A stretch of 63,982 nt of DNA, counting the filler, from Asterionella formosa (Eukaryota): the NCBI GenBank assembly GCA_002256025.1. It is 5 parts of 5 records of this genome, joined end to end, with 100 filler letters (N's around TTAATTAATTAA, not from the genome) between each part and the next. Parts side by side here need not be neighbours in the genome. Positions count along the whole stretch, not along the records: positions 38,467 to 51,181 come from NKIB01007254.1; 4 more parts are not named here. One strand, 5' to 3'. The notes beneath the pieces were generated by a model. It was not told the origin of the DNA. It worked only from the letters and a program-made list of their open reading frames with translations, and did no database searches. Numbering within the stretch: position 1 is the stretch's first letter; each line of letters opens with the position of its first letter. Below are positions 12,112-51,281 of this stretch, in pieces. Made by a program: the position numbers and the translations under genes.

Positions 12112-13728
12112 GTCTGCAAATAAAAATCATCATATTCCCATGATGCATCATAGCATTGTGATCATCTGATCATAATTTTTCGTTGTTATATCATCTAAGG
12201 GCCGTTCTTATCATTCTGTTATTTGTTGTCATTGGTGTATCATCGCCGAAATATGATACAAAAATGGCGGTTTGGTTTTTTTTTGTGTATCACCAACGGT
12301 TTTTTTGGTCTGATCACCGGTGTATCATGGGTGTATCACTGATACAGTTTTTGGACCCCTGACCAATGCTGTATCACTGATCAAGCCGTTGATCACTGTG
12401 TATCACGTCCGTTGCCACTGATAAAATAACTGTAAATACGCAAGCACAACACTATTAAATATTGCGCCAACTATTTTTTGTTATATATATACTACGGTAC
12501 TCTGTATACATTACCTTTCAGCTTCGTGAGTCATACAAGAATCAGTAGTCCGCTCATCTCTATACCAATCTTCCGACATCGACTATATCTCGATTAATTG
12601 GCGCAATGAGCAGCAAAGTAGTGGGTACGGCTGAAACTTCTGATGCTGCCTCTATTCGCATTGATTCGGAAGAGAAGCAATGCGTTGTAGCTGATGAGGA
12701 CGTCGAAGATATTGTTGAGTTGTCTACTGCTGATCCAACNNNNNNNNNNNNNNNNNNNNNNNNNNNNNNNNNNNNNNNNNNNNTTAATTAATTAANNNNN
12801 NNNNNNNNNNNNNNNNNNNNNNNNNNNNNNNNNNNNNNNTCTATTGATGGTAACAAAGATGCGGACAAGTTCAACAGTGAATACAAGAACAACATACCAA
12901 TGAAAACAAGTCGACAGTGTGTGTACGCACACGCCAAGCAGGTTTGAGGCAACAGACAGTTCCAACAAGCATATGACGATACAGATATCAAATATTTCCT
13001 ACGAGAGAACAGCAATGAAGAGAGCCACTTGCTTTCGCTCTCTTGATGGTATCAAAGATACAGACAAGTTCAATAGTTAATACAAGTACAGCATGCCAAA
13101 TGCGGATACGAGCGATATGAAAAAGAAATTGTAATTAGAATCATTCTATAACTATATCTATGTGGATAGTAGCAGTCTGTTACATTTTCGTATCTCCTTC
13201 TATGCTGAATCTTAATAGTAGATGTAGTATCATGTGAGAATTGAAAATGTCAACGAGAACAAGTAGAATGTGTTTGTTTACGGGTTGATTGGCGAGATTG
13301 TAATGCTGGTGGTCGACGAAACGGATTTACAACGTGCGCTGTGTGCGGAACCATTACAAGTTCGAATGATTTCTTCTCTGTAAACTCTTAATTGAATGAT
13401 TATGAACAAAGGTTCACTGCACATGACAATTACTCAAAAATATAATGATCACATGACCAGCAATTGAAGACGTCGTTATCGCAAACAATCCTTCCATTCG
13501 TCATCGCTAGTTTCGAGCCAAATTACATTACTTCAGCTGGTACATTATCCTACCAAGAAATTCGAATACAGGAATCTAATAGAAACAATACATATAAAAA
13601 TTAAATATATGTAGTCTAAATTACAAGGGCATTTATCAAAATTATTAGATGATATAACGAAAAATTATGATCAGATGATAACAATCCAATGATGCATCTT
13701 GGAAATATGATAGTTTTTATTTGCAGAC
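12112..13728. mobile_element. Non-autonomous TIR (MITE-like) DNA element, spanning an assembly gap
   Basis: About 85-bp imperfect terminal inverted repeats: 12112 GTCTGCAAATAAAAATCATCATATTCCCATGATGCATCA... vs the reverse complement ending at 13728. Many subterminal (G)TGTATCA motifs at 12234..12405. No clear TSD. Confidence 0.7.
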
Positions 13729-25553: not shown

Positions 25554-28500
25554 NNNNNNNNNNNNNNNNNNNNNNNNNNNNNNNNNNNNNNNNNNNNTTA
25601 ATTAATTAANNNNNNNNNNNNNNNNNNNNNNNNNNNNNNNNNNNNNNNNNNNNCAAAACAATTTTTTCTATTTCTCATTTGATGCTACTTATTACATCGC
25701 ATTTCATACTTTGGTTGCTCCAAACATCATGTTCAATTTGCATTGATGTTGCATGTTACAATCATTCTCGTGTGTTTTACGCTTGTTGTACCATCTCTAT
25801 GCATATTACCGATATTCTGGTTGTCATGCTAAAATCGGCAATTTTATTGCCGAAAAATTCGATGTGCCCCATATTGCCCTTAAATAAAAATTACTTAAGA
25901 AATTACTTAGAGACTAAAAATTACTTAGATATACCCGAATGGCAAGACGATAGCTGGAGCGGGAATTGCTTACAGAAACCTATGATGATAATACCGGGTT
26001 TTTAAAAAATACATAAATAGTCTACTCCCTGAATTCACTAGAATTCACATGCATAGTCTTCAATCCTCACGCTTGTACACGCGGGACAAAAGTATAGAGC
26101 CGTACGGTAATTTGTACTAGACTAGTAGAAATTGCCTAATAAGAGTAGACAAACCTATATCTGAGAATGGGAGAAAACGAAGCTTTAGCTTAGTACTAGC
26201 CAGTATCAAAGGAAGGCTAAAATTCTAGTCGCACTTTTGAGGCTCGAAAACTCGGACTTGTAGGGAGGGTGGGATGGAAAAGAAAGGAACAAGTTTGAGG
26301 AACCACAAAAAAACGTCAGGACCGCAATGGGATCATTGCGACCTGATAACCATAAATTCGCGAGCATGACAAGAAAGTGGGCACTGGATGTGCATAATTT
26401 TGACTGGCGTCTTCGGCTTAAGAAGCCGACCTGGTGAGTTATTTCTCCAGCAATGCTCGATCACCACTCCAGACATTCGGTCGACTTACAGGAGTATGTT
26501 CGTACACCTAAAGTACAGTTGGTTCAAATTGGTCATCTGGCAATCGACTGTTCAGTAGAGTACCAGTATGTATAGTTGCAACACGCTAAGCAACTACCCC
26601 GGCTCGATCCATGTCCTTTGAAGAAGTCATCTCTTGATATATTTCTATGCCAGAGGATGCAGGCAACAAGTTCTTTGGTTAGATCACCATAAAACCTGCA
26701 AGTTGCTGTAATTTTGCTTTTTTTCCCAAAACCGACAAATGTTTCCTGACATTGCAGCCTTTTAAGAGATCAAAGTATAAATACTTCCAATAGTTTGTGC
26801 CTGCTGGCCATATAAAGACAACTGGACAAAATTTGATAAATTCAGATCATTAGGGACAAAACAGGTTCTGACAAATTGTAATTTTGGGTTCAAGCACTTA
26901 GGGAACTATGTTAGTTTATGCAAATGGACTCTACTTCAAGCAAAATTTTACTTACATTTTTTTCTTAAACCAAAATTTTGCTTAATCTAGACAAACATAG
27001 TCCTTACTTCATTTGTATATGCTCCCTACTTCAGCCACTGCAGAAGGAAATTGAGTTACCAGTACACCACTCCTGTTGAAACATGGCTTGCCCAGTATAG
27101 ACCGGGTTTCATATGTACTAGTGGTATAGATGAATGGGCTGCTGCACATTACTATGACTTTATGAAGGCATTACCAGTAGTTTTGACGGCATGATACCGG
27201 AGAGCTTCACATTCGTTGGCTTCCACGAGGACTGTATAAAAATTGCAAATTCGCAATCAATCAATTTTTAGTAGATAATAACCTTATTTCACACCTTTTG
27301 CTTCGAGTATTCATGTTACTACTGTAGTCTTAGTCTTATTTGTTGTATATCCACTGTAAAAGTGTCGTATTTGCTGCTCATAGCATCGTCGTTTAAAAAT
27401 TGCTGGTCTAAATTACATGAAAAAATGTGCCATCGGCGACTTCAATTTTCGTTGTCAATAGTAGTAGTGTTTTAAGATTATTCTTTTACGATTTACTTTC
27501 AGCTATGTCGTGTTTAAAATACATATCAAATAGGAAAGCGTAGGTCTCATTTTTCGTCGAGATATTCGCTATTTTTCACATGGTCAACACTGCGACAACA
27601 TGATGATGAAGGATTCTGCAGCCGCTTGCAAGTACGACTACTTCTACCCTATAGCGTATTCTATATACAAAAGAATACCATTATTTTAGCTAAATAATTA
27701 TATTCCAGAGCAAATGCGTGCTATCTCAGGTACTAGCTACCTGTACATACCATGTCCATGAATCCAGCCATACGTATCATATATATATATGCATGGCTGC
27801 AATGTATATTGTCAGCTTCATCTTACATATATTTACCGGCATTCAGTACAATTAGCTACAGTATTACATAGGTTGTATGTGGGTGTGACGGCAGATGCAT
27901 TGAAATGATGACGTCAAAATAAGTCGTTAAGTTGCTATTTTAAGCAAAATCGCTAATTTAAGCAAACGCACTTTAAGATAAACGGTCCTACATTAGTAGC
28001 TAAGCAAAACCAACGGAGGCGTAAACGTCAAAAAAGCAAAACAGATTGGTCTCAATATTTTAGACTAAATCAGATTAAAGGAAAAAATATATTGGAACAA
28101 CAAGCCGGCCGGGTTGGTATATCAAGCGGATATCAAGAAGAAACACATGAGTCAATTTGGAATTGTAATCAGTATTGCCAGTAATTAGTCGTACGTGAAA
28201 CTAGATACCGGTATAGCAAAATCACCACAACTTGCTGGTGTCTTGTATTCCCCCATATATACCTGTACCTCCCTTCATATATCTGGTGCAACACTAACAC
28301 TCCCAAATATTTTAAGTCTACAGAAAAAAAGCATTATTATTGCATTCTAGCTATTTATTAATACATATATACTATAATTGCATCATTACAAGTCACTATG
28401 ATCATGAAACAACAATCAACAACAACACGAGCGATGCCAATGACATCTGCAATGGCAATATCCTTAGTTTACAATCTATTTCAACAGTTGAAGCTGCAAG

Positions 28501-38322: not shown

Positions 38323-38466
38323 TTGAGGCAATTCCCGCTCTAGCTATCGTCGCGTCATTCGCTTACNNNNNNNNNNNNNNNNNNNNNNNNNNNNNNNNNN
38401 NNNNNNNNNNTTAATTAATTAANNNNNNNNNNNNNNNNNNNNNNNNNNNNNNNNNNNNNNNNNNNN

Positions 38467-39300
38467 TTTTTTCTTCCTTCTAACGTTAAGTTTAACATTG
38501 TCAGCAAAAACGGATGCTCGGAATGTTTCATTTGTTTATCAATAGGTGAACCATCACTGAAAACTGCTAGGGCAACAAATAAACACCCTGTCTTCAACAC
38601 TCCATTTTCTGATGCAGGAGAATTGTTGAATGCATTTTCAAACCAAGTCGCAGAAGTTACTTCGTCATATATGCGTTCTCCACAAGTTGTAAGTTTCACT
38701 TGTGGGTGACATACAAAATGTTGCATGATATCGGAATCACATAGCAATCCTGCCATGAGCTGTACTGGTTCGAAATAATGGAGTGTGCGTGGGATGATCA
38801 TATTTGAATTGTTATCAATCTTTATTTGTTTGGTCAACAGTTGAACACCAGCTTATGTTGGTGGAAATGAAATATCCATGCGTTTTTTCAAAGTCTGGTA
38901 GGATGGAGCTTGATACCTTCCATCAAAATATTTCATTGCTTTTGCCTTGAATAGCCATTTCATTAGATGATCAAAGTAAACTGGTGGTGGAAGATAATTC
39001 TCGTTGAGGAATAACATGAGTTCTAATTTGATTGGATGCATGTTCAGAGAATGTTTACTTGGAAGTTGAAATTGAGGAGGAAGGGGCATTTCCATTGCAT
39101 TTTCAGGGAGAAAGCCGGTGCGATCTTGAAAATCTGAATATTGCATGGTTTCTGAATTCAACCCTTGGAGAGGAGGTTTTAGTCTCAATTGTTCGTCCTG
39201 TTGTGACTGAATATTGTTATAAACTGAATCGTCGCTGTCGTCATGAAGTGGATGATTGTGGTCACTTGATTCAAGGATAGGACACATAATCTCTTCTTGT
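38467..39300 (-). pseudogene. Plavaka-like transposase remnant
   Basis: RIYDEVTSATWFENAF...ALAVFSDGSPIDK....EHPFLLTMLNL resembles the Plavaka Y.E..T..WW...I...D.T..D...P...T..N block. Confidence 0.55.
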
Positions 39301-39509
39301 CTAATCTCCCTAAATGCTGCAGCAGTTACAATGCCATCATTAACTTCTTTCCTTGAATGATTCGATGCACTACCGCAATACATAGTTTCACTATGTATTC
39401 CAGGAACTCGATGTTCTTGCATGCAATGTCGACAGTGACCATATGCATAAAAAACCCATCATAGTCATGCAATGTGCACATAGAGTAGAATACGGGAGTG
39501 CCTTGGTAT

Positions 39510-39900
39510 TGGTTGGCTAAATTATGAGCAGACAAGACCCGGGTAAAATGGACTCTGCCATGACGGACATTTTCTTGCAAAGCCTGCGTTTTTGTAGCAA
39601 TATGACGGATTAATTTACCCGCATGCGCAATGATTTGTGCAGCAGAATTGTCTTCTCCAATGGAAATAGCATCATGATAAGGAATTGACATTTCCTCCAT
39701 GTAAATGCGTAGCCACAAAACATGTTTAGATAAGGTGGTGGCTGCATCAAGTTCTGCTTCAGTAGTATTGTATGCTGTTGTACTTTGTTTGCGGCACAAT
39801 GTAATTACTGCAGTATCATTAATCATAATGACACCACCAGAATATGCCAACCGGTCAAATATGGCACCTCCAAAGTTAGCATCTGCATAGCCTTTGGTGG
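39510..39900 (-). pseudogene. Ty1/copia RNase H fragment
   Basis: GYADANFGG...SGGVI...RKQSTTAYNTTEAEL...EDNSAA...RHI...NLAN. Confidence 0.85.
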
Positions 39901-40019
39901 TAGGTGCTATTCCAAGAAGAGGTTTGCTGATATTAGAGAAATGTTTCTGTTCTTGAAGCGTGGATGATAATGAGGTAGATACTGATGGAGTGGTACCGTC
40001 CTTGCCTTGTTCCCAGTCT

Positions 40020-41044
40020 ACGACAGTGGCCACCTCCTACGCACCGCCAACGCCTCCCCCCCTTACCCCCCTTAACGCCTCTAAAGATGACCATTCCTGG
40101 CAGTTTAGTCACCGCCCAGCACATCACATCCGCTTTGCGGGCCTCTGCCACCACACTAGGACCCTCTCTGGGTTTCTTACCATCAGACGTCAGCGCCTGC
40201 TCCCTCTGGGATGGCGGCGCCATGGCCCTCCTCTGTGCCTTTGTCGACTCCGACCGCATTCGCCTTATTGGCCGATGGCGCTCCTACGAAATGCTCCGGT
40301 ACCTCCATCTTCAGGCCCAGCCCGTCATGCGCGGTCTGGCCCAAAAAATGCTTACTGGCAGCATGTACACCCTCCTCCCTGGGCAGGACGTGCCCGCCGC
40401 CTTTCCAAACCTCGTACCCAACCCATAGACCTCGCTCACTGTCCCAGTTTCATCCTTCTCCCACCCCATTTCCGCCGGTGGCTGTGTAGGGCTCAACATT
40501 TGCCCCTTGGCAAATTTAGAAGTAACGGTTCCCCGAGGGACCCCAGTAAATAGCCGTTACCACCACCACATGTAACAATGGTACCGGTATAGGAGTGAAT
40601 GACTAGTCTAGGCGGCTAGTGCCGCCGTAGACTGGGAAGGCAAGGACGGTACCAGCAGGTACGTAAAAACAACCTGTGGTACAAACCACCGGTGAACACA
40701 TCACCCCCAAAATTCTGCAATTCTGCTGGTTGTTGAATCGGAACCCTCATAATTCCTTGAATCGCAATCCTGCCATTCAACTGGTGAAACCAAAACGGAG
40801 ACCCCCATAGTCTCCCCCTCCTTGGATATAGCGATCAGGCCATCCCACTGGAGGCACTGATCAATCCTCACCCGAATTAGCTCGGAAACCCACCCAGGCC
40901 CACCCTGGCTCAACATTTGCCCCTTGGCAAATTTAGAAGTAACGGTTCCCCGAGGGACCCCAGTAAATAGCCGTTACCACCACCACATGTAACAATGGTA
41001 TAGGAGTGAATGACTACTGGTAGTCTAGGCAGCTAGTGCCGCCG
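40020..41044 (+). mobile_element. 3' end of a tyrosine-recombinase (Ngaro/DIRS-order) retrotransposon
   Basis: YR C-terminus ITSALR...SACSLWDGGAMAL...IRLIGRWRSYEMLRYLH, followed by direct repeats at 40490..40627 and 40907..41044. Confidence 0.75.
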
Positions 41045-41170
41045 ATAATACCAGTACGTAGTTGACTGCTCTATTTGTATTATGGCTGTGGTGAATACTG
41101 TATACAGTGTACCTGGTACCAGATGGTAAATTAATTAATACTCGGAGTATCATGATATAATTGTTCGCTC

Positions 41171-42664
41171 ATGGCTTATCTTCTGACTGATGAAAATCCG
41201 ACAAAACTCATACCGTCCTTATTTCCACACAAAACGAAATGGATCTTTGCTGAAATGGTCGACGAATCAACTCCTCTTTTCCCCTCTCTTTCGAAGGCGG
41301 GTACCATGATCATCGCAATTCCATCGTCCTGGCACGACTGGCTGATGATACTTAACCCCATGTATCTTCCTCGTCGCTTATCAGTGTTGAAATTCAGGCT
41401 CCGCATCACCGCGGAGCTTTATATTCTCGTGCCGCTCATGAAGCTCTATAATTCCATCATAGGCTCGCTGTTGCCAACTCCAGTTGTGCCCTGGTATTAC
41501 GACCCTGAAAACCACGTGGACGACGCCATTATTGAACCCAACCTCATGCTGCTCTCCAAGCGCCTGCAGGCAGACTTTTACACCAACAAGTACGGTGCCT
41601 ACCTTCGCCGCTCCCTTGGGTTCATGAGTCGGGTCATGCCGTCCTATATTCGAGGCATCACTGCCATGCCACACAACGAGTCGTCGCTCTATAACTACAT
41701 CGCCACCACGTCCCTCTCTTTCTCCTGTGCTCCGGATGGCCTGACTCTGGACCTTACCATCTTCAATCGCGTGCCAGAGAGTCCTGATCGCAAGAATCCG
41801 GTCTTGCCTGGATACATCTTCAAGTTGGACCACACCAATCGAAAGGCGTACGTCTTTGAAGGAGAGGATTCCGTACCGCCCAGCACTCCGAATGTCACGA
41901 CAGTGGTGAGCACTGCCCTTCTGGCCTACACACACTCGTTCATTCACTTCCATTTTCCCACCTCAATGGCATTGTTTGCCGATAAACTCATGCACGACCC
42001 CGTCAAACAAGGAAGCCGACTGGCGAAGCTGTTGGACACACACACGAGATTCACGTTGGTGATCAACTTTGCTGGACACAATTCGTTCTTCCCGGTCCAG
42101 AAACAGGATTCTTCCTTTCCTCATTGTTTCTCCATTACGCAGCACGACTTTGCGTTTTTGAACATTGCCCGTACTCAGCATTACTACTACCTGACTGGGG
42201 AAAATCAGTGTGGTAGCTTCGTGACTCCTTCTTGTCAGTACAAGGACATGTATGACTTTGATGATCGATTTGTCTTTCATCGGGTTGTCAAGATGTATTA
42301 CCCGTACATCGACAAATACGTTCGAGAATATGGTGTGGAATCTGATCTATTGGAAGAATTTGTTGCCTTCTTGAAAGAAGCTGTGCCCTCGATCGAAATC
42401 AAGGACCCCATGACAATGTTGGTGACATTGATTTGGCAAGTATCTGTGTTTCATTCTCTTGATCACTTTGCGATTTTCCAGCAGAGGGAGTACATGGCCT
42501 TTGGAAATCCCAAGGATCCCTGGAATGTGGCAGCTTCCCGTTACACCTTGGAAACATATGTCGACCCATTTGCGTCTCCAAACAAAGGTGAATACTTGCA
42601 CCATCATCTTGATATTGTCGGGTTGCCCAACTGGGACGGTATCGTTAGTTCCATTTCTTTCTAG
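41171..42664 (+). CDS. Divergent lipoxygenase-like protein (catalytic domain only), intronless
   Basis: Motifs occur in LOX order: THSFIHFH (metal His pair), LAKLLDTHTRFTLVIN (cf. KLL.PH.R.TL.IN), LIWQVSVFHSLDHF (cf. IF..S..HAAVNF) and C-terminus IVSSISF-stop (cf. IPNSISI). Confidence 0.7.
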   Translation: MAYLLTDENPTKLIPSLFPHKTKWIFAEMVDESTPLFPSLSKAGTMIIAIPSSWHDWLMILNPMYLPRRLSVLKFRLRITAELYILVPLMKLYNSIIGSLLPTPVVPWYYDPENHVDDAIIEPNLMLLSKRLQADFYTNKYGAYLRRSLGFMSRVMPSYIRGITAMPHNESSLYNYIATTSLSFSCAPDGLTLDLTIFNRVPESPDRKNPVLPGYIFKLDHTNRKAYVFEGEDSVPPSTPNVTTVVSTALLAYTHSFIHFHFPTSMALFADKLMHDPVKQGSRLAKLLDTHTRFTLVINFAGHNSFFPVQKQDSSFPHCFSITQHDFAFLNIARTQHYYYLTGENQCGSFVTPSCQYKDMYDFDDRFVFHRVVKMYYPYIDKYVREYGVESDLLEEFVAFLKEAVPSIEIKDPMTMLVTLIWQVSVFHSLDHFAIFQQREYMAFGNPKDPWNVAASRYTLETYVDPFASPNKGEYLHHHLDIVGLPNWDGIVSSISF

Positions 42665-42687
42665 TGTGCAATTTCTTGAACCAATTT

Positions 42688-45600
42688 TGTGAGATATCTG
42701 ATGGGTTTCCGGGTTATGATTTTGAATTCAATTTGTAACTTGCCACCGATTTACCTTCTTGGTGTTCGTGATGGACATTTGAGGTTCATCTGTGGGTCTC
42801 CTTCAGGGTATTCTGATGGCGATTGGACTATCATCTGTAATGGGCCTTTTGTGCGATGTATGCACTCATCATTCCTGAATATCTGAAGGCTCATGGGTCT
42901 TCGTTTTACGCCATTGTATTGGCGAGTATTTGCCTGGTTTGGGTTATTCTAGATAAGGCAAAATACTTGTTACGATCATATAATTAAAATTAGACTTATT
43001 TCCCTGTGTCTACTGTCTTACTGATTATAACAAACTAGGTTTATTTACGGATATTTGTCGGTTTCCCACACGCTTCCCCTGTGCAAAACGACAATCGTCG
43101 TAAGAAGACTTCCGTCCAACATTCTCCGTCAATCCAATCGACTTTGTGGACTTGATCCCAACATGGCTCAAGCAATCAATGCCCCCTCGGGTTTTTGTTT
43201 TCGCCCTTACACCTGCTATTGCAAACCCAGACCCTGTCGATTACAACACCAGTGAGGGAATGAAACTCTACAAGTCTGCCACGGAGAAACTTCATCACAC
43301 CTTCGACGGTGAGACAGGCAGTCTCCGCCTCTTCCTTCAAGCCTTGCAGCAGAGAGCGGATGCATTCGGATGGGAGTTCATCCTCACTGTTCCAGATGAG
43401 CAGAACATTGGACGCAACTTGATTACAGAGTATGGTCGTGTATCCATGGCAAATGTAATTGCTCACGCAACCACCCATGTGCATACTCAGACGCATGACG
43501 CACAGAACAGTGCCCAGCTTTTCACATGCATCTATGACTCTTTGTCCCTTGAGGCATTGCTCAAGGTGTCTACGGACTCATCTACATATCGACTTGCATC
43601 TCCCAACGCCCCTACATATGTCGTTGCCAGCAGAGCCGCCTTCCTCAAGCTACTTATTACAAGGTGTACAGTTGATACTCAATCTACTGTCGCAACTATT
43701 CGCCGCACTCTAAGTGCGCTTGACCAGTACATCCTGTCCGTAAATTGCGACGTTGAAAAATTCAACCTACATGTGCGCATTTACAGTGCGATGCCTTGTT
43801 GTCTCGTGGTGAAACATCGTCTGACCTCTTGACCAATCTATTTACGGCATACGAGGCCGTGGAAGACGAGGTTTTTCATGACTATATGGTTGGACAGCAG
43901 GACCAGTATCATGATGGGCGAGTGGATTTTGATGCTGACTCCCTAATGGACCTTGCCCTCAATAAATTTAAGATGCTTGTGGAGTCTAAGAGGTGGAATC
44001 TACCTTCTGCTCAGGATGTCAGATTGGAGGCTCAAATTGTTGCACTCACGGCCAAATTGGAATATTTCAAGGCCAACCGAAATGTCACTCCTATCGGCAA
44101 GAAAGAAAAGGAGAAAGCTAGAAAGGCTAAGCTCGCCAAGAAATGGGCCTGGAAATTGGTTCCCCTAAGGAAAATGACCCCAAAACGAAGACTGTGGACA
44201 CCAAGGAATATCATTGTTGTATCCACCATGCTTCATGGACAGTGCATACAGCAAAGGAGTGTAATCTAAATTCTAATGCAACACCTGTGACCAATAAGCC
44301 AGTGAAGAAACCCGTCAAGGACAAATCGGCTGATGCGATTACCCTCTCCAACGCTTTGGCCAGTATCATGGAGACGCAGGATGATGATGACGATTCGAAC
44401 CAGAGGGAGGACGATGTTTCAGTCACGGGCTAGAAAATGGGCCGGAGAATGATGACCATTTTAAGTAGCTTATTTAGCTATGGGTTATATCAATATATTC
44501 TCTGTGGGCCGGTTTTTGTGACTCTCGTGTCGGATTACCTTTCTATGTCATCGGAAGCATGCCTATGGTGCATATGGTTTCTTGTGATCTTTGTGAGCAC
44601 CCCCTTTATGCGCTCTGCATCATCTAGTCAGTACATACCAAAGCGAAAACGTTCCAAGATTCCACTATATGCTTACGCTGGGTTACAATATGGTATAGGC
44701 ATTTTCGAAGCCATGCTACGAAAGATGGAATTCTCTCTGGCCTGATCATCAAAACGGTGCCAATCTCGCCATGGACAATCATGGGTTTATGTGGGCGAAA
44801 AATGGAAGGTGCCTCATAAAATGCGCCCGACCATGATGCGGGCCTACATAGCAACGTCACACCCTCCTATGGGATACAGTATGTCTACCACCTATCAAGG
44901 TTGCTCAGTCACACCACGACCATTTGACTCTGACAGTTATCTACTAATGATTGACAATTGCTGTTCTAAATGCGTCACCAATTGTCGCACCGACTTTGTA
45001 GGTACCCCTACTCCGGTAAGAGCCCAAATAAGTGGCGTGGGAGGCCCCATAGCTACCGGTTCTACTGAAGGGAACGGTTAAGTGGAAAATAGAAGATGAT
45101 ACGGGACGTGTTCACATTTTTCGTATTCCTGGGACATTTTATGCGCCCAAGGCCCCATTTAGGATGTTATCACCCCAACACTGGAGCAAAGAAATTAATC
45201 GTGGTCGGATTGGAACTAAGGGAGCATGGTGCACTACCTAGCTATGAAGATAGGGTGACCTTGTGCTGGGACAATAATCTCTATGTTTGAAATGTCAAGC
45301 TGGATCCAGCTACAAATGTAGCTACGTTGCTAACTGCCCCAGGGACTAACTGATATCAAATATATGAGGCGATTCTCAAAACGCAAGTAGAGTTCAAAAC
45401 AGAGCTTAGGTGTTTTAAACTAAACACTGTTCCTGACAATAAGTGCATCTGGTCTGATGGTCAGGCAACGGAGCAAGATTCAACACTCCCTTATGACTTT
45501 GATGAAAATGCGGAACTCATGTGGAAAGAACAAAAGCCAACAACAGTTCCTAAGTTTCCGATGACCACGGCTGAGAAACAACAGAGAAGTCTCACGACTA

Positions 45601-48513
45601 CTACTGACCAGCCCGGATTCGATCTTTTCCATGATACCGATGCCCGACCCATCGAGATTGAAGAACAGGATGCCATGACTTCTACTGCCCAACTTTTGCG
45701 AGTCCATTACCAGCTGGGACATCTTCCTTTCAAGCAGATTCGCTGCATGGCGGGAACTGGTTTTCTGCCGAAGAGCCTCCTTCAGGGAAGAATCCCAAAA
45801 TGCGCTGCTTGCATGTATGGCAAGGCCACTTGCCGAGCGTGGCGATCCAAGGCCCCACCGGGCAAGGTGGGAGGAGACCTGCCTGCATTCCCCGGAAAAT
45901 GCGTGTCAGTCGATCAAATGCAGTCGCCCGCACCCGGCCTTATTGCGCAACTGAAGGGAGTTCCGACTACTCAAAGGTATACTGCGGCGACGATTTTTGT
46001 GGATCACTTCAGCAGGTTGTCATATGTCCACCTGCAGAGGTCCTTGACATCAGACAATACGGTCCGAGCGAAGAGGGCGTTCGAGCGCTATCGCGCATCG
46101 CATGGTGTGAGGGTATTGCACTATCATGCCGACAATGGCCGATTTGCGGATACCCTCTTCCTTCGCGACATTGATGAGCAACGACAGGAGATTTCGTATT
46201 GTGGGATGAATGCCCACTTCCAAAATGGAGTGGCGGAGAAGATAATCCTTGATCTACAAGATATGACTCGTACTGCCCTCCTGCATGCCTTGGCGAGGTG
46301 CCCAAGCGCCATATCAAATTGTCTGTGGCCATATGCGCTGCGTATGACCAATGACGCCCTGATCAGCTCCCCAAGGCGGTTGGATGGGCGATCAGCTGTG
46401 AGCGTCTTCTCACGTGCCGACGTGTCCCCAAAACTCAGTACATTTCGCCCATGATGGACGATCCTATCGCTTTTGCGGCCAAGACGTCCAATCCTGATAC
46501 GTTGCAAGCCGACCAGGCCCTGCGGGAACCCGACCGAAAACAGTTTATTGCGGCTATGGAGGCCGAGGTGATGGCTCACCACAACAATCATCACTGGAAG
46601 GTGTTGCCTAAGTCTGCGGTTCCCTATGGGACCAAAATACTACCATGTGCGTGGGCTATGAAGCGCAAACCTCGCATACTAGCCTCAAGGGAGGTTTATA
46701 AATGGAAGGCTAGACTAAATCTACATGGTGGCAAGCAGGAATATGGCGTGAACTATTGGGAAACTTATGCAGCAACCCTTTCATGGCCACCCATCCGCTT
46801 TATGCTGATCCTGTCCCTCATGCATGGGTGGAGTACATGCCAGATAGACTTTACACTTGCTTATCCACAAGCAGATGTGGAATGTGACATGGAAATTCCT
46901 CATGGTTTCAATATGCCTGAGGGGGGTAGGTCTGATCATTGTTTGAAGATATTGAAGAACATTTATGGACAAAAACAGGCTGGGCGAACATGGTCTAAGC
47001 ACTTGACAAAAGGCTTATTGTCTATTGGATTTGTTCAAAGTGAGGCTGATGAATGCATCTACTATAGGGGTACGACTGTATTTATGGTATATGTGGATGA
47101 CAGTATCTTCATAAGTCCGGATGCCTGCCTAATCGATGAGTGTATTGAACTCATGTGGGCTATTTTTAACTTGACGGATGAAGGGGACATTTCGGACTAC
47201 CTGGGGATCCAGGTATCCATATCTGAGGATGCTGCTACTATCACCTTGACTCAACCCCATCTCATTGCTTCTATAGCCGATGATATTGGCTTTACCAACA
47301 AGACCAAATCTAAGGGAGTTCCGGCATCACCCACCGTTATTCTGCAGCGGGATCTCACGGGTGAAGATTTTGCTGAACACTGGTCATATCGATCCATCAT
47401 TGGAAAGCTCAATTTTCTGGAGAAATCCACTCGTCCTGACATAGCATACGCTGTGCACCAATGTGCCCGTTTTTCGGCTAACCCAAAGGCATCCCATGCT
47501 GCGGCGGTCCGTAACATCGTTCGCTACTTGATAGGGACGCCTGCGCAAGGAATCGTGCTACAGCCTAATGAGCACTCTTTCGTGGTGTGGGCGGATGCTG
47601 ATTTTTGCGGAAATTAGAACAGAGACACGAGCGTGATTGATATGATGACAGCCAAGTCTCTATCCGGATATGCGATTACTTACGCATCCTGTCCGGTGTT
47701 GTGGGCATCAAAGTTGCAGACCGAGATGGCGCTGTCCACCACTGAGGCAGAATATGTGTGCCTCAGCCAATCTCTTCGGGACACCATTCCGCTTATGAAT
47801 TTGCTGGCTGAGGTCAGGGACAAGCTTGATAAGGATGTGATATCAGTTCCAGCTGTCCGCTGCACCTTGTTTGAGGATAATTCCGGGGCATTGGAGTTAG
47901 CCCGCACTCCCAAGATGCGCCCCCGCACCAAACACATCAACATTAAATACCATCACTTTCGTGATCATGTGCAGTGCAAGCTCATCAGCATTGAGCACGT
48001 TGCGACTGAAGACCAGGTGGCTGATATTTTTACCAAGCCACTCCCTGTGGTGGCATTCTTGCGTCATCGCAAGTCGTTGCAACGCTGGTGACCTGTGAAT
48101 CTGTGAAAGTTGTCTCCTCGAATAAGGGAGTGTGAGATATCTGATGGGTTTCCGGGTTATGATTTTGAATTCAATTTGTAACTTGCCACCGATTTACCTT
48201 CTTGGTGTTCGTGATGGACATTTGAGGTTCATCTGTGGGTCTCCTTCAGGGTGTTCTGATGGCGATTGGACTATCGTCTGTAATGGGCCTTTTGTGCGAT
48301 GTATGCACTCATCATTCCTGAATATCTGAAGGCTCATGGGTCTTCGTTTTACGCCATTGTATTGGCGAGTATTTGCCTGGCTTGGGTTATTCTAGATAAG
48401 GCAAAATACTTGTTACGATCATATAATTAAAATTAGACTTATTTCCCTGTGTCTACTGTCTTACTGATTATAACAAACTAGGTTAATTTACGGATATTCG
48501 TCGGTTTCCCTTA
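42688..48513 (+). mobile_element. Full-length but defective Ty1/copia (CoDi-like) LTR retrotransposon
   Basis: 383-bp LTRs at 42688..43070 and 48131..48513, with about 7 differences by eye. 5-bp TSD AATTT at 42683..42687 and 48514..48518. Polypurine tract AAGGGAG. Domain order gag, protease (IDNCCS), integrase (H..LGH..C..C, VSVD, HADNG, QNGVAE), RT (YVDD), RNase H (ADAD, TTEAEY, EDNSG). Frameshifts, stops and an apparent deletion near 46450. Confidence 0.95.
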
Positions 48514-48660
48514 AATTTGGTTTACATACTAACGTTTTCGTGTTCTGTACACCAGTTATAATGCCAGGCACTTTTATAATATATGCAGAGAATAATGCTG
48601 TAGGAGTGCAAATTTAAGTAACAGTGCTGGCTGGCACAAGCTTAATATATGTAGCAAGTA

Positions 48661-48905
48661 GGGGAGTGGCTTGGTGGTTAGCACACCTGATGCGGTGGCA
48701 GGTTCGATTCCTGCATTCTCCACCTGTCTTTTTCATGTACCGGTAGTCACTAGGGTTCCGGGCTGTGCGGCTGACGAAAAGACAGGTCCCGTTGTACCGT
48801 ACGGACGAATAAAACCGGTACTAATTGTGTCCATTTATTCATTTATTTGGGCACGAGTGCGATTATAGGATAGCTTTAGCGTACTATAAGATTTGATTGA
48901 TAATT
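48661..48905 (+). mobile_element. Complete tRNA-derived SINE with TSD
   Basis: tRNA-like head: GGGGAGT/ATTCTCC acceptor stem, A-box-like GTGGCTTGGTGG and T-arm GCAGG-TTCGATT-CCTGC (B box), with a shortened anticodon arm. Flanked by the direct repeat TTAATATATGTAGCAAGTA (48642..48660 and 48906..48924). Second copy at 25371..25553. Confidence 0.88.
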
Positions 48906-51281
48906 TTAATATATGTAGCAAGTAGCAAAGCGTCGTTCTCAATTTTTGAGGAGATGATTCGTATTTTCGTCATGGTCAAGGTTGCTTGTGACAACATGAT
49001 ACAGGATACTCCAGCTGCTTACCATCACTACCTGTCTACTCTAGTGTTAAATATGTACAAAGGAATTGCAACCTTATAGCTAAATAATTATATACCAGTA
49101 CATACAAGGACCAACATAATTATAGCACAATAAATTGTCTATGACTAGACAAAATTGGGTGCTTGATTCCACATCAGAAAAATATACAGGAAGGGGGGCC
49201 ACGAAGGTCCGGTAGCGCACGTTTAATGCGCAACTTTTCAGTTTTGACACACTCCCAATGGATCATATACTTGCCTGCCGGACGAGATTGGCCAGCTTTC
49301 GATGAAAAAAATTTCCTTAGGTAATTTAGGATACTCTACTCAAAAAATTATGACGATTTGAACACGACTTGGATTTGCTGCCTGATCAACCGATTCAGCA
49401 AACTATCTTCTTGCTTCGGAATACAAATAGGAATCATTCTACGTTCTGACTACATACAACTAGAACTTGAGGTTGAATACAAATAGATTTTCTGAATGAC
49501 CCTTCTGCAAATGAAGAACTATACCTTGTCGGTACATAGTAACTTTTTAGCATGTAACCCCTGAAGCACTTGTTGGTTGTTGGATGAAGTGGGAGCTGAT
49601 GAGGTGCTTGCTTCAACCTATTGATTGGCGATTATTGTTGTTTTCCAAGAATAGCTACATTCAATAGCAGACGACTCTTCACTCATGGCATGACGTTAAT
49701 GTATCTCAAGGTCAATAACAGCTCTGAGGAAAGAGGAGCAAAACATTCCAGTTATCAGAAGAGTAATTGTCATTGAATCAAGCTCATTTTTCCACAATAC
49801 TTTGTATACTATATGTATAGCTTTGTCTACTAGCTTTATCGTGATGAAACTACTTCTAGATGCTGTTTCTACGTCAAAACATACCAGATCTATAATTCCG
49901 AAAAAAAATTAATTGTTACTTCGCAATTTTCAACTTCTTCATCGCTCAGCCAATCTTGGTCACATTTTAGACTTAAGCTAGCCGTATACATTAGCTTACT
50001 CAGCTTGGAATGTGACCAGTATTGGCAGCAGGGAAATGAAGAAAATCGATTTCCAATCAACCCCTCATTTCCTTTCTCTCAATCACAGTGACAAACCGAT
50101 ATTAATTTTGCTGTAAACAATGAAAATAATTTAGAATTCTTTTTACAACCAAAATCAATTCCCCTTTAAGTCACGCATCTAATAAAATCACAACATGTGC
50201 ATTGCATGTATTGTGTGACTGTGGCAGCCAAGGGAATCCTGCATCATGTCATCTCCGCCTTGACCATGATAAAAATAACAAATGTCTCTGTGGAAAATGA
50301 AAACGACGCTATGCTTTTTGATAAAAATGTATGACACGACAATGATAAAACAATCATTAAAAAAACTGTAATAACACTAATATTGACAATGCAAATTGAA
50401 GTCACCAAGAATGGTGCATTTCTTCACATAGTTAAGATTATGTATAATTTTCAAAATGACGAAGCGGCGATAGCCAAGATTTAATATTTTCACATCATGC
50501 AATCTTGTGTAATCTGTAGGGTGAACCAAATTTTGTTTGATTCTCTATTTAACAATATCAATTATTAGTCCATTGATATTTTTAAAATGACTCTCACAAG
50601 TACTGATCCAGTTTTTGACTACATATGACAAGAAATTTGCTGACAATGACTAGATATTGAAGACTACCAATTGAACTTGATAACCATAAATAGAATTTGC
50701 TTACTAAGACTAGAAGTTACTGAGTGATTTGTGAACTTCTTTATAACCAAGCAAGCCACATTCCAGTTCCTGAATACGATTAGTACCTGTTGAAGTAGTT
50801 GAACACGATTTCGATAATCAGAAGACGACTTGCTTGGATTCACGAATAATAATTTGATGACATATAAAATCATTCAAGAGAGTTTGGAATGGAAAGCCAG
50901 CCTTACCAGTAGGCATGGAATGAATCATTCTTGGGAGTGAGTCGAATCCGAAAAAGTGCTCACAGAAGGTGCAGTACCTGGTGAAGTATCTAACTAGAAG
51001 TAGTAGTATTTGTTGAATATATGAGCTTATTTGTTAATCCTTGTGTGTTACTCGTTCTCCAAGTCGACATCAAAGTATACAATGAGGGTTAGTCGAGTTC
51101 TCTCATTATTGAGTTCTTATACATATATGATATAACACTAACCCTATATACATCTGTATTGATGCGCAAGATCGCTCACTCNNNNNNNNNNNNNNNNNNN
51201 NNNNNNNNNNNNNNNNNNNNNNNNNTTAATTAATTAANNNNNNNNNNNNNNNNNNNNNNNNNNNNNNNNNNNNNNNNNNNN

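Follow-up and report, generated by a model that had tools for sequence, protein, structure and literature searches.

The DNA considered here is a stretch of 63,982 nucleotides, filler included, from the diatom Asterionella formosa (the window), and its plus strand holds at 41171-42664 a lipoxygenase-like open reading frame (ORF) of 497 codons, stop-free and intronless. A preliminary description of this DNA had proposed that the whole unbroken frame encodes a short, non-canonical lipoxygenase (LOX); the frame holds on translation, which needs no intron, and the coding span has to be trimmed, with the first 45 codons probably lying outside the protein. The probable coding sequence extends from Met46 to Phe497 (41306-42664, +), and it corresponds to a protein of 452 amino acids and 52 kDa with a predicted LOX catalytic fold and without the PLAT domain. 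The surprise of the locus is the family to which this protein belongs, that is, predicted LOX-fold proteins of 45-52 kDa hidden from Pfam and present in diatoms and marine bacteria, and not its transposon setting.

Regarding the start of the protein, it is probably Met46 and not Met1: five homologues (57-77% identity) start within a few residues of window Met46, and the upstream in-frame extension of 45 codons (41171-41305, +), probably untranslated, does not occur in any homologue of less than 90% identity; the second copy of the gene in this genome (copy 2) lacks Met1 and has a 1-bp gap inside the extension. RNA contigs of runs X1, X3 and X8 start at 41289, 41290 and 41303, close to the ATG of Met46 at 41306, and these shared ends are a weak hint to a 5' end only; the contig of run X5 extends to 41210, where it has a loose end. 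RNA depth is 0 across 41057-41263 in three of four runs, and in run X1 this is an internal silent stretch. Counter to a start at Met46, the extension is open in the near-identical sequence L005 and in 9 of the 14 further sequences listed for the near-identical cluster. On the opposite strand, an antisense ORF of 190 codons (window 41381-41953, -; L002 2209-2781, +) stays open in L005 as well as in both copies, and is probably a shadow of the codon use of the sense gene.

As for the fold, a sequence search of the PDB with the protein or with its close alignment found no chain, and the assignment was obtained from an AlphaFold model built from a 32-row alignment (mean predicted local distance difference test, pLDDT, 88.7; predicted template modelling score, pTM, 0.89). 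Against 48,161 chains, VIA-align placed 12 lipoxygenases at the top, with Z values of 15.1-21.2, the next match having Z 5.0; these 12 chains superpose on 288-376 residues, their root-mean-square deviation being 3.2-4.1 Å, and in 11 of them the alignment closes with model residue 452 on the final residue of the chain. In the Foldseek search of the PDB, the matches listed are 34 rows, all of them lipoxygenases with modest E-values between 6e-5 and 1e-3, and a hit to human ALOX15B (E 3.6e-4) comes from the sequence profile A4; ESM Atlas gives LOX-annotated clusters at 0.90, with a recognition score under the bar and hence as a lead only, with a higher value (0.96) for the relative P0009. The protein is thus predicted to carry the lipoxygenase catalytic fold, and the structural comparison that had been suggested for it returned lipoxygenases only. 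The PLAT domain is indeed not evident: the N-terminus of the model is helical and has no barrel, and its 35-residue helix (peak hydropathy 1.5) is a possible membrane contact in place of PLAT.

The motifs that drew attention to the ORF are where they were described, all on the plus strand: HSFIH at residues 255-259 (41933-41947), HSLDH at 428-432 (42452-42466), and the terminal Phe497 (42659-42661), with 65 residues between H432 and the C-terminal end, as previously estimated. The hhalign alignment to two canonical bacterial LOX (probability 95.7) pairs HSFIH with HLGACH, leaving a gap of one residue, and HSLDH with HASVN. In this alignment, H255 and H259 are the predicted first two metal ligands, H428 the third, and H432 the fourth, with His replacing Asn, while the structural alignment makes the carboxylate of Phe497 the predicted last one; profile and structure together place three His, the His/Asn/Ser position and the C-terminal carboxylate at positions equivalent to those of LOX, as had been anticipated. 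The papers cited here are used from excerpts; in that of PMC13059375, the fourth LOX ligand may be His, Asn or Ser. The motifs are not a product of chance, because the ligand His are conserved in the aligned relatives (H428 and H432 in 28 of 28; H255 and H259 in all 27 rows having a residue at that column) and the terminus is mostly aromatic, with Phe or Tyr in 26 of 28 rows.

The departures from the canonical pattern are real as well. The norm is HxxxxH spacing with a C-terminal Ile, occasionally Val (PMC13059375, PMC10968607, both in part), while the window protein has HxxxH, one residue shorter, and Phe. Anchoring without gaps on H291-x7-N299, which corresponds to the canonical HTRYTLHIN, assigns Gly302 to the 'Coffa' Ala/Gly position and Phe306 to the normally invariant Leu clamp (42074-42088, +); the register of the clamp is uncertain by one position, since hhalign opens a one-column gap there, so that the residue is Phe either way or Ser/Met305. 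The Coffa/clamp pair is Gly/Phe in all nine close-clade proteins checked. We class the protein as lipoxygenase-like, neither a PF00305 member nor a manganese LOX (Mn-LOX), because fold and ligands appear to be those of a LOX but four canonical features differ. The earlier picture of a short, PLAT-less and non-canonical protein of LOX fold is therefore supported by the model, the ligand alignment and the structural matches.

The protein has seven close homologues at 55-96% identity, the nearest named one being from Attheya sp. (66%), and an exhaustive search retrieved 25 relatives at E ≤0.001; those with a name are from Attheya, two species of Paulinella, Thalassotalea loyana, Shewanella maritima, a Kiritimatiellia metagenome-assembled genome (MAG) and a gammaproteobacterial MAG. 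The tail that follows the fourth ligand has 62-66 residues in the window protein, five close relatives, P0011 and three short bacterial proteins, whereas two long-branch rows have 78 and 83, the other HxxxH proteins 105-136, and three canonical LOX 116-137. What the short tail lacks includes the last long helix, common to the long-tailed members and to human ALOX15B (640-670), and amounts to about 50 residues. Because close relatives and short bacterial proteins have a tail of equal length, the short tail is a trait of the clade and not damage to the window copy; a pseudogene with a private C-terminal deletion and no expression had been raised as a possibility, and instead the tail is common to the relatives and RNA contigs are present. 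The bacterial members of this short-tailed clade (Thalassotalea, Shewanella and the Kiritimatiellia MAG) have 385-418 amino acids, and the clade as a whole 385-457; these proteins form a branch of a wider HxxxH/HxxxH/aromatic-terminus clade.

The bacterial homologues are themselves plausible LOX-fold proteins, and the model of the Thalassotalea protein matches the same 12 LOX chains with Z 16.2-23.1. Two of them, of 45 kDa and annotated as hypothetical, are the 386-amino acid protein of T. loyana (L006:6001-7161) and the 385-amino acid protein of S. maritima (L007:6001-7158); both genes stand alone among housekeeping genes, with no operon partner evident from ORF reading in L006 and L007. Among 400 gammaproteobacterial genomes, five match the profile, one of these being the query's own and one a canonical LOX, and PF00305 gives sub-threshold matches to 4 of 20 distant relatives (best 22.2 bits).

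These searches also brought up other proteins. A bacterial branch with HPxxH and HxADH motifs and an aromatic terminus (L010:1501-2991, -; L011:1747-3003, -; L012:1324-2838, +) sits in the tree between canonical LOX and the main HxxxH clade; two of these three ORFs adjoin ORFs that resemble adenylate/guanylate cyclases on sequence reading, and the one in L011 has a stop directly past the third His. Gammaproteobacterial proteins positive for PF00305 (L031:1124-3265, L032:1082-3208, L033:1972-3294) combine HLSTH or HLSMH with HALEA and a terminal SPWN, that is, another non-canonical ligand set with a C-terminal Asn. P0024 (861 amino acids) has a hydrophobic, apparently multi-pass N-terminal region fused to an HxxxH LOX-like domain, P0011 has an N-terminal hydrophobic extension, and P0032 is a Paulinella protein. 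Finally, L034:1835-4983 (-) is a canonical bacterial LOX with a terminal Val, directly behind a 500-amino acid ORF with a heme-c-type CxxCH motif.

The tree comprised 32 rows and was rooted on three canonical LOX; 15 of the rows have no taxon and two have long branches. Six close rows form one clade (support 100/100) inside the short-tailed group (99/96), together with three named bacteria, while Paulinella falls elsewhere, outside this group; the branching order within the group is weakly supported (84/79, 87/76). Beyond the diatom clade, the closest relatives that have a name come from bacteria, and the patchy spread of the family suggests gene transfer, possibly from bacteria to the diatom. 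A search for plasmids with the Thalassotalea protein gave no match. The GC content at third codon positions (GC3) is 0.61 in the gene and 0.42-0.56 in seven other ORFs of the window, a value that fits high expression equally with a foreign origin.

As for expression, the gene occurs in 20 listed runs from 17 studies, with lake, freshwater, estuary or algae as labels and one coded organism, and window-type sequence is present in lake RNA libraries, where the preliminary description had advised to look. Run X1 has contigs identical to the window, with 0 differences across 41289-41401 and 41617-41772, at depths of 650 and 309; the other allele has 705 and 353 there. One X1 contig passes from the gene into the long terminal repeat (LTR) downstream with 2 differences, and a similar X5 contig has 23; contigs of the window copy, including its private I50/H55 and the junction between gene and LTR, are found in RNA runs X1, X3 and X5. 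The window copy is apparently expressed, and its mRNA probably ends within the LTR.

The coding sequence retains constraint, although relaxed. Counted from Met46, the window branch carries 18 nonsynonymous and 11 synonymous changes, with a ratio of nonsynonymous to synonymous rates (dN/dS) of about 0.47 (p = 0.04 versus neutrality), while the branches of copy 2 and L005 have 10:7 and 2:4 changes, respectively; no change on the window branch touches a ligand.

Regarding the surroundings of the gene, the linked neighbourhood is limited to 38467-51181 (contig G000:C7254). The window contains 100-base N spacers with a central TTAATTAATTAA at 12740-12839, 25554-25653, 38367-38466 and 51182-51281; they mark contig joins, across which adjacency is uncertain. 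The description of everything from 36 to 49 kb as decayed elements applies to the neighbours on this contig, which are element remnants, and not to 36.0-38.4 kb, which belongs to another contig. A fragment of a Plavaka-type transposase (PF18759, E 3.7e-6) lies at 38415-38801 (-), and the Pfam scan of the neighbourhood also gave an RVT_2 match (E 1e-33).

The two elements closest to the gene are at the distances first reported: upstream, the last base of a repeat is 41044, which leaves 126 bp to the first ATG, and downstream an LTR starts at 42688, 23 bp past the stop. The upstream repeat (40039-41044, no strand assigned) is the remnant of an element with split direct repeats, 91% identical to another genomic copy and with 46 genomic matches; its former label as a tyrosine recombinase (YR) element, for which there was no Pfam match, is a tentative one based on a motif and on the split-repeat layout. 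Three other copies of the repeat that reach the same end continue into unrelated DNA or a contig end, never into the gene. Homology to L005 and copy 2 upstream of the gene begins at 41059, and the repeat replaced the region beyond this point, 247 bp before Met46. The downstream element is a Copia-type LTR retrotransposon (42688-48513, +) with RVT_2, two LTRs (42688-43070 and 48131-48513) that differ at 7 of 383 bases, and a 5-bp target duplication, AATTT, at 42683-42687 and 48514-48518. It lies within the 3' untranslated region (3' UTR) of the gene, whose displaced native flank (48519-48544, +) matches what comes directly after the stop in L002 and L005; in runs X3 and X8, RNA contigs have loose ends at 42687 that match it too. 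Because the target duplication is within the gene's own 3' UTR and copies of the repeat occur elsewhere without the gene, the gene is a resident, not cargo, and the transposons landed around it; the proposal that it was carried by an element is at odds with its position outside both LTRs, next to insertions made beside and into it. Copy 2 and L005 have neither flanking element.

The genome has two copies of the gene. Copy 2, on contig G000:C14934, is 94% identical to the window copy in DNA and 93.6% in protein; it has its full upstream region and stands tail to tail with an ORF that a reading of its motifs labels glutaredoxin-like. Searching the genome with PF00305, with two motif patterns and with five proteins that are LOX or resemble LOX, an approach of low sensitivity, revealed no further LOX beyond these two. 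At the end of the window contig, 50575-50980 (+) is the upstream region of a second gene copy, 91.5% identical to L005 51-452, which is upstream of the gene there; it is cut by a high-copy LTR of 199 bp (50981-51179, +), of which the genome holds at least 39 more at 98-99% identity. Many copies of this LTR are at contig ends: the family was active very recently and interrupts the assembly. On G000:C14934 the same LTR is followed by the 5-bp flank CCTGG, the promoter and copy 2, and CCTGG is also found on the window side, so the two copies probably stand in tandem with one LTR element between them; 51181 would then continue on G000:C14934, with the duplicate just past it. Since the next contig of the scaffold differs from G000:C14934, we only infer this order.

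On these bases, the explanation that we favour, with a probability of about 57%, is that the protein, on a minimal scaffold, carries out the usual lipoxygenase reaction and so supplies a fatty-acid hydroperoxide to oxylipin defence or signalling. One metal ion would be held by H255, H259, H428, possibly H432, and the carboxylate of Phe497; its oxidised hydroxide form would remove a hydrogen at a bis-allylic position of a polyunsaturated fatty acid, such as eicosapentaenoic acid (EPA) or C16 acids, and addition of O2 would give the hydroperoxide that feeds wound-activated oxylipin production. The long and moderately hydrophobic N-terminal helix would take over the contact with the membrane from PLAT, and the window copy would be one of two duplicates that later received the repeat upstream and Copia in its 3' UTR. 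In the available part of PMC13059375, a Gly at the Coffa site goes with an R product, and Gly302 would predict R stereochemistry if this rule holds here. Freshwater diatoms are described as having 9- and 12-LOX pathways in the consulted text of PMC4483651.

Regarding the metal, iron is predicted to be somewhat likelier than manganese, about 60:25, the remainder being other or mixed. The preliminary description linked the HxxxH pentamer to manganese, and we reject this, as the Magnaporthe Mn-LOX has His284/His289, that is, HxxxxH (PMC10997076, in part); His residues five apart also appear in the alignment legend of PMC8464941, likewise seen as an excerpt. The HxxxH spacing does not call the metal, because of this Magnaporthe spacing, because Fe- and Mn-LOX have similar sets of ligands (PMC13059375, same excerpt), and because the model resembles Mn-LOX no more than it does Fe-LOX: its terminal residue is Phe and not Val, and it matches the Mn-LOX 5fno with Z 18.7 at 10% identity versus Z 21.2 for 5ek8.

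Several points weigh against ordinary LOX chemistry. None of the eight close members has a Pfam match, PF00305 included (curated cut-off 23.6 bits), and identity to solved LOX in the structural alignments is 8-12%. The Leu clamp, described in the excerpts as completely conserved among active LOX, is Phe306 here and Ser, Ala, Val, Gln or Asn in relatives, and fungal LOX-fold proteins with a Cys clamp bind Mn and have nominal activity only (PMC12383934, in part). The RNA evidence consists of assembled contigs, with neither strand nor level, to which DNA carry-over may have contributed; and, in a set of 18 near-identical rows, the window copy differs from all the others at nine residues, two of them (D109Y and F298I) at otherwise conserved sites. 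Part of this is what would be expected if the protein were a LOX-fold metalloenzyme with other chemistry, a hydroperoxide isomerase or lyase, or a dioxygenase of a non-standard substrate, with little LOX activity: the clade has kept its metal ligands without variation and given up the Leu clamp throughout, as in the nearly inactive fungal proteins, the last long helix is missing along with some 50 tail residues, and EPA could not be docked into the Phaeodactylum group III model according to the accessible text of PMC10968607. Nothing positive points to another substrate, however, the clamp Phe is still bulky and hydrophobic, and the lone bacterial copies have no pathway partner seen; we consider this alternative doubtful, yet the most serious one. 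A bolder form of it, rather unlikely in our opinion, sees the short-tailed clade as a separate minimal class of the LOX fold, with a site of four His and an aromatic carboxylate, that cleaves or rearranges hydroperoxides, or performs both steps. If true, the clade, which possibly reached diatoms from bacteria, would offer a candidate for the hydroperoxide-lyase step that yields the volatile hydrocarbons and oxo-acids of freshwater diatoms. We know of no gene identified for this step.

The remaining alternatives concern the copy rather than the family. The family may be active with the copy on G000:C14934 as the functional one, and the window copy a decaying duplicate, as the replaced upstream region, the Copia insertion, the private residues and the dN/dS of the window branch when set against the 2:4 changes of L005 would have it; on the other hand, the frame and all the ligands are intact, the window branch is still below neutrality, the ratio for copy 2 is similar, and window-identical contigs are found in three RNA runs, which makes decay improbable. 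That the gene is the cargo of a mobile element or of a giant virus is by now largely refuted and deserves very little credence: it is intronless, it has elements on both sides and a raised GC3, and its best Foldseek E-values are to giant-virus LOX-like models (a Megaviridae sample, E 4.6e-7, query-normalised template modelling score, TMq, 0.56; Yasminevirus), but these are 11-14% identical, none of 85 and none of 2 candidates in two scans of viral contigs was related, and, besides its position outside both LTRs, the gene has two copies only, one of them without either flanking element.

If the favoured reading of an ordinary lipoxygenase on a minimal scaffold is right, the protein would still be a compact biocatalyst and a missing piece of the oxylipin biology of diatoms and marine bacteria. 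In the excerpt of PMC4483651, diatom LOX products are oxygenated at carbons 5, 6, 9, 12, 14, 15, 18 and more, and few diatom LOX genes are annotated according to that of PMC10968607; a branch that escapes both Pfam and BLAST searches with known LOX supplies small intronless candidates for expression. Members of 45-52 kDa would undercut all the 12 solved LOX matched here, whose full-length chains have at least 568 residues, and define a minimal scaffold. Four textbook features have changed together, namely the His spacing, the fourth ligand, the terminal residue and the Leu clamp, so that the clade is a natural test of the selection of Fe versus Mn and of the need for the clamp.

Among known systems, the giant-virus LOX-domain proteins (BFVD A0A5J6VJ47, A0A5K0U892 and A0A3G4ZNF4) resemble the window protein in being short, with 479-529 amino acids, and in giving the best Foldseek E-values, and differ in an identity of only 11-12% and in having no sequence-level relative in the viral contigs scanned. 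Two giant-virus proteins listed as 'uncharacterized', A0A5J6VJ47 (E 4.6e-7) and A0A3G5ACP3 (E 5.5e-5), are probably unannotated LOX-fold proteins. The fungal Mn-LOX of Magnaporthe (5fno) and Gaeumannomyces (5fx8) share with the model the predicted fold (Z 18.7), the lack of PLAT and a terminus other than Ile. The Gaeumannomyces enzyme reportedly has an HxxxH pentamer. The Magnaporthe enzyme differs from the window protein in His284/His289, Asn473 and Val605 (PMC10997076, as excerpted) and in the Leu clamp, which it keeps (PMC12383934, in part).

The PLAT-less or 'mini' bacterial Fe-LOX, namely Cyanothece CspLOX2 (5med) and CspLOX1 (5ek8), and the enzymes of Pseudomonas aeruginosa (4g32) and Enhygromyxa (8x8f), are similar in the predicted catalytic fold, with Z 18.4-21.2 and 350-376 residues aligned up to the C-terminal ligand. 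The window protein is 10-12% identical to them, at least 120 residues shorter and without the last long helix, and it has HxxxH, His, a terminal Phe and a Phe clamp where they have HxxxxH, Asn, Ile and Leu. Chrisnasari is said to have distinguished, in 2022, nine bacterial clusters. A literature search, made largely without subscription journals, found no paper on the short-tailed clade, and the available portions of PMC13319228, PMC3669278 and bioRxiv 10.1101/2022.06.21.497025 do not mention it.

The closest published counterpart is the diatom 'group III' of putative LOX described by Giordano et al. in 2024 (PMC10968607, in part), with XP_002180840 of Phaeodactylum tricornutum and HBME01023157 of Synedropsis cf. 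recta, whose pattern HswvH - HstdH was modelled in silico only. As in the window protein, this group has HxxxH/HxxxH with a one-residue deletion between the first two His, His in place of Asn, a Ser after the first His, and an aromatic residue at the site (Trp418 of the modelled domain); the motifs of the window protein are thus as non-canonical as proposed, and less unique, although the HSF[IV]H/HSLDH pattern itself is not among the 45 motif patterns in the accessible text of PMC10968607. The differences lie in length, 569-596 amino acids for group III versus 452 with a 65-residue tail, in the way of discovery, since group III was found by BLAST from canonical diatom LOX, and in the Coffa/clamp pair, which is Ala/Gln in group III versus Gly/Phe here, the comparison being by published description only. 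Because the His spacing is the same, and Ala147/Gln151 of group III recur in the wider relatives P0009 and P0018, the wider HxxxH clade very likely includes group III, with the short-tailed proteins as its compact branch.

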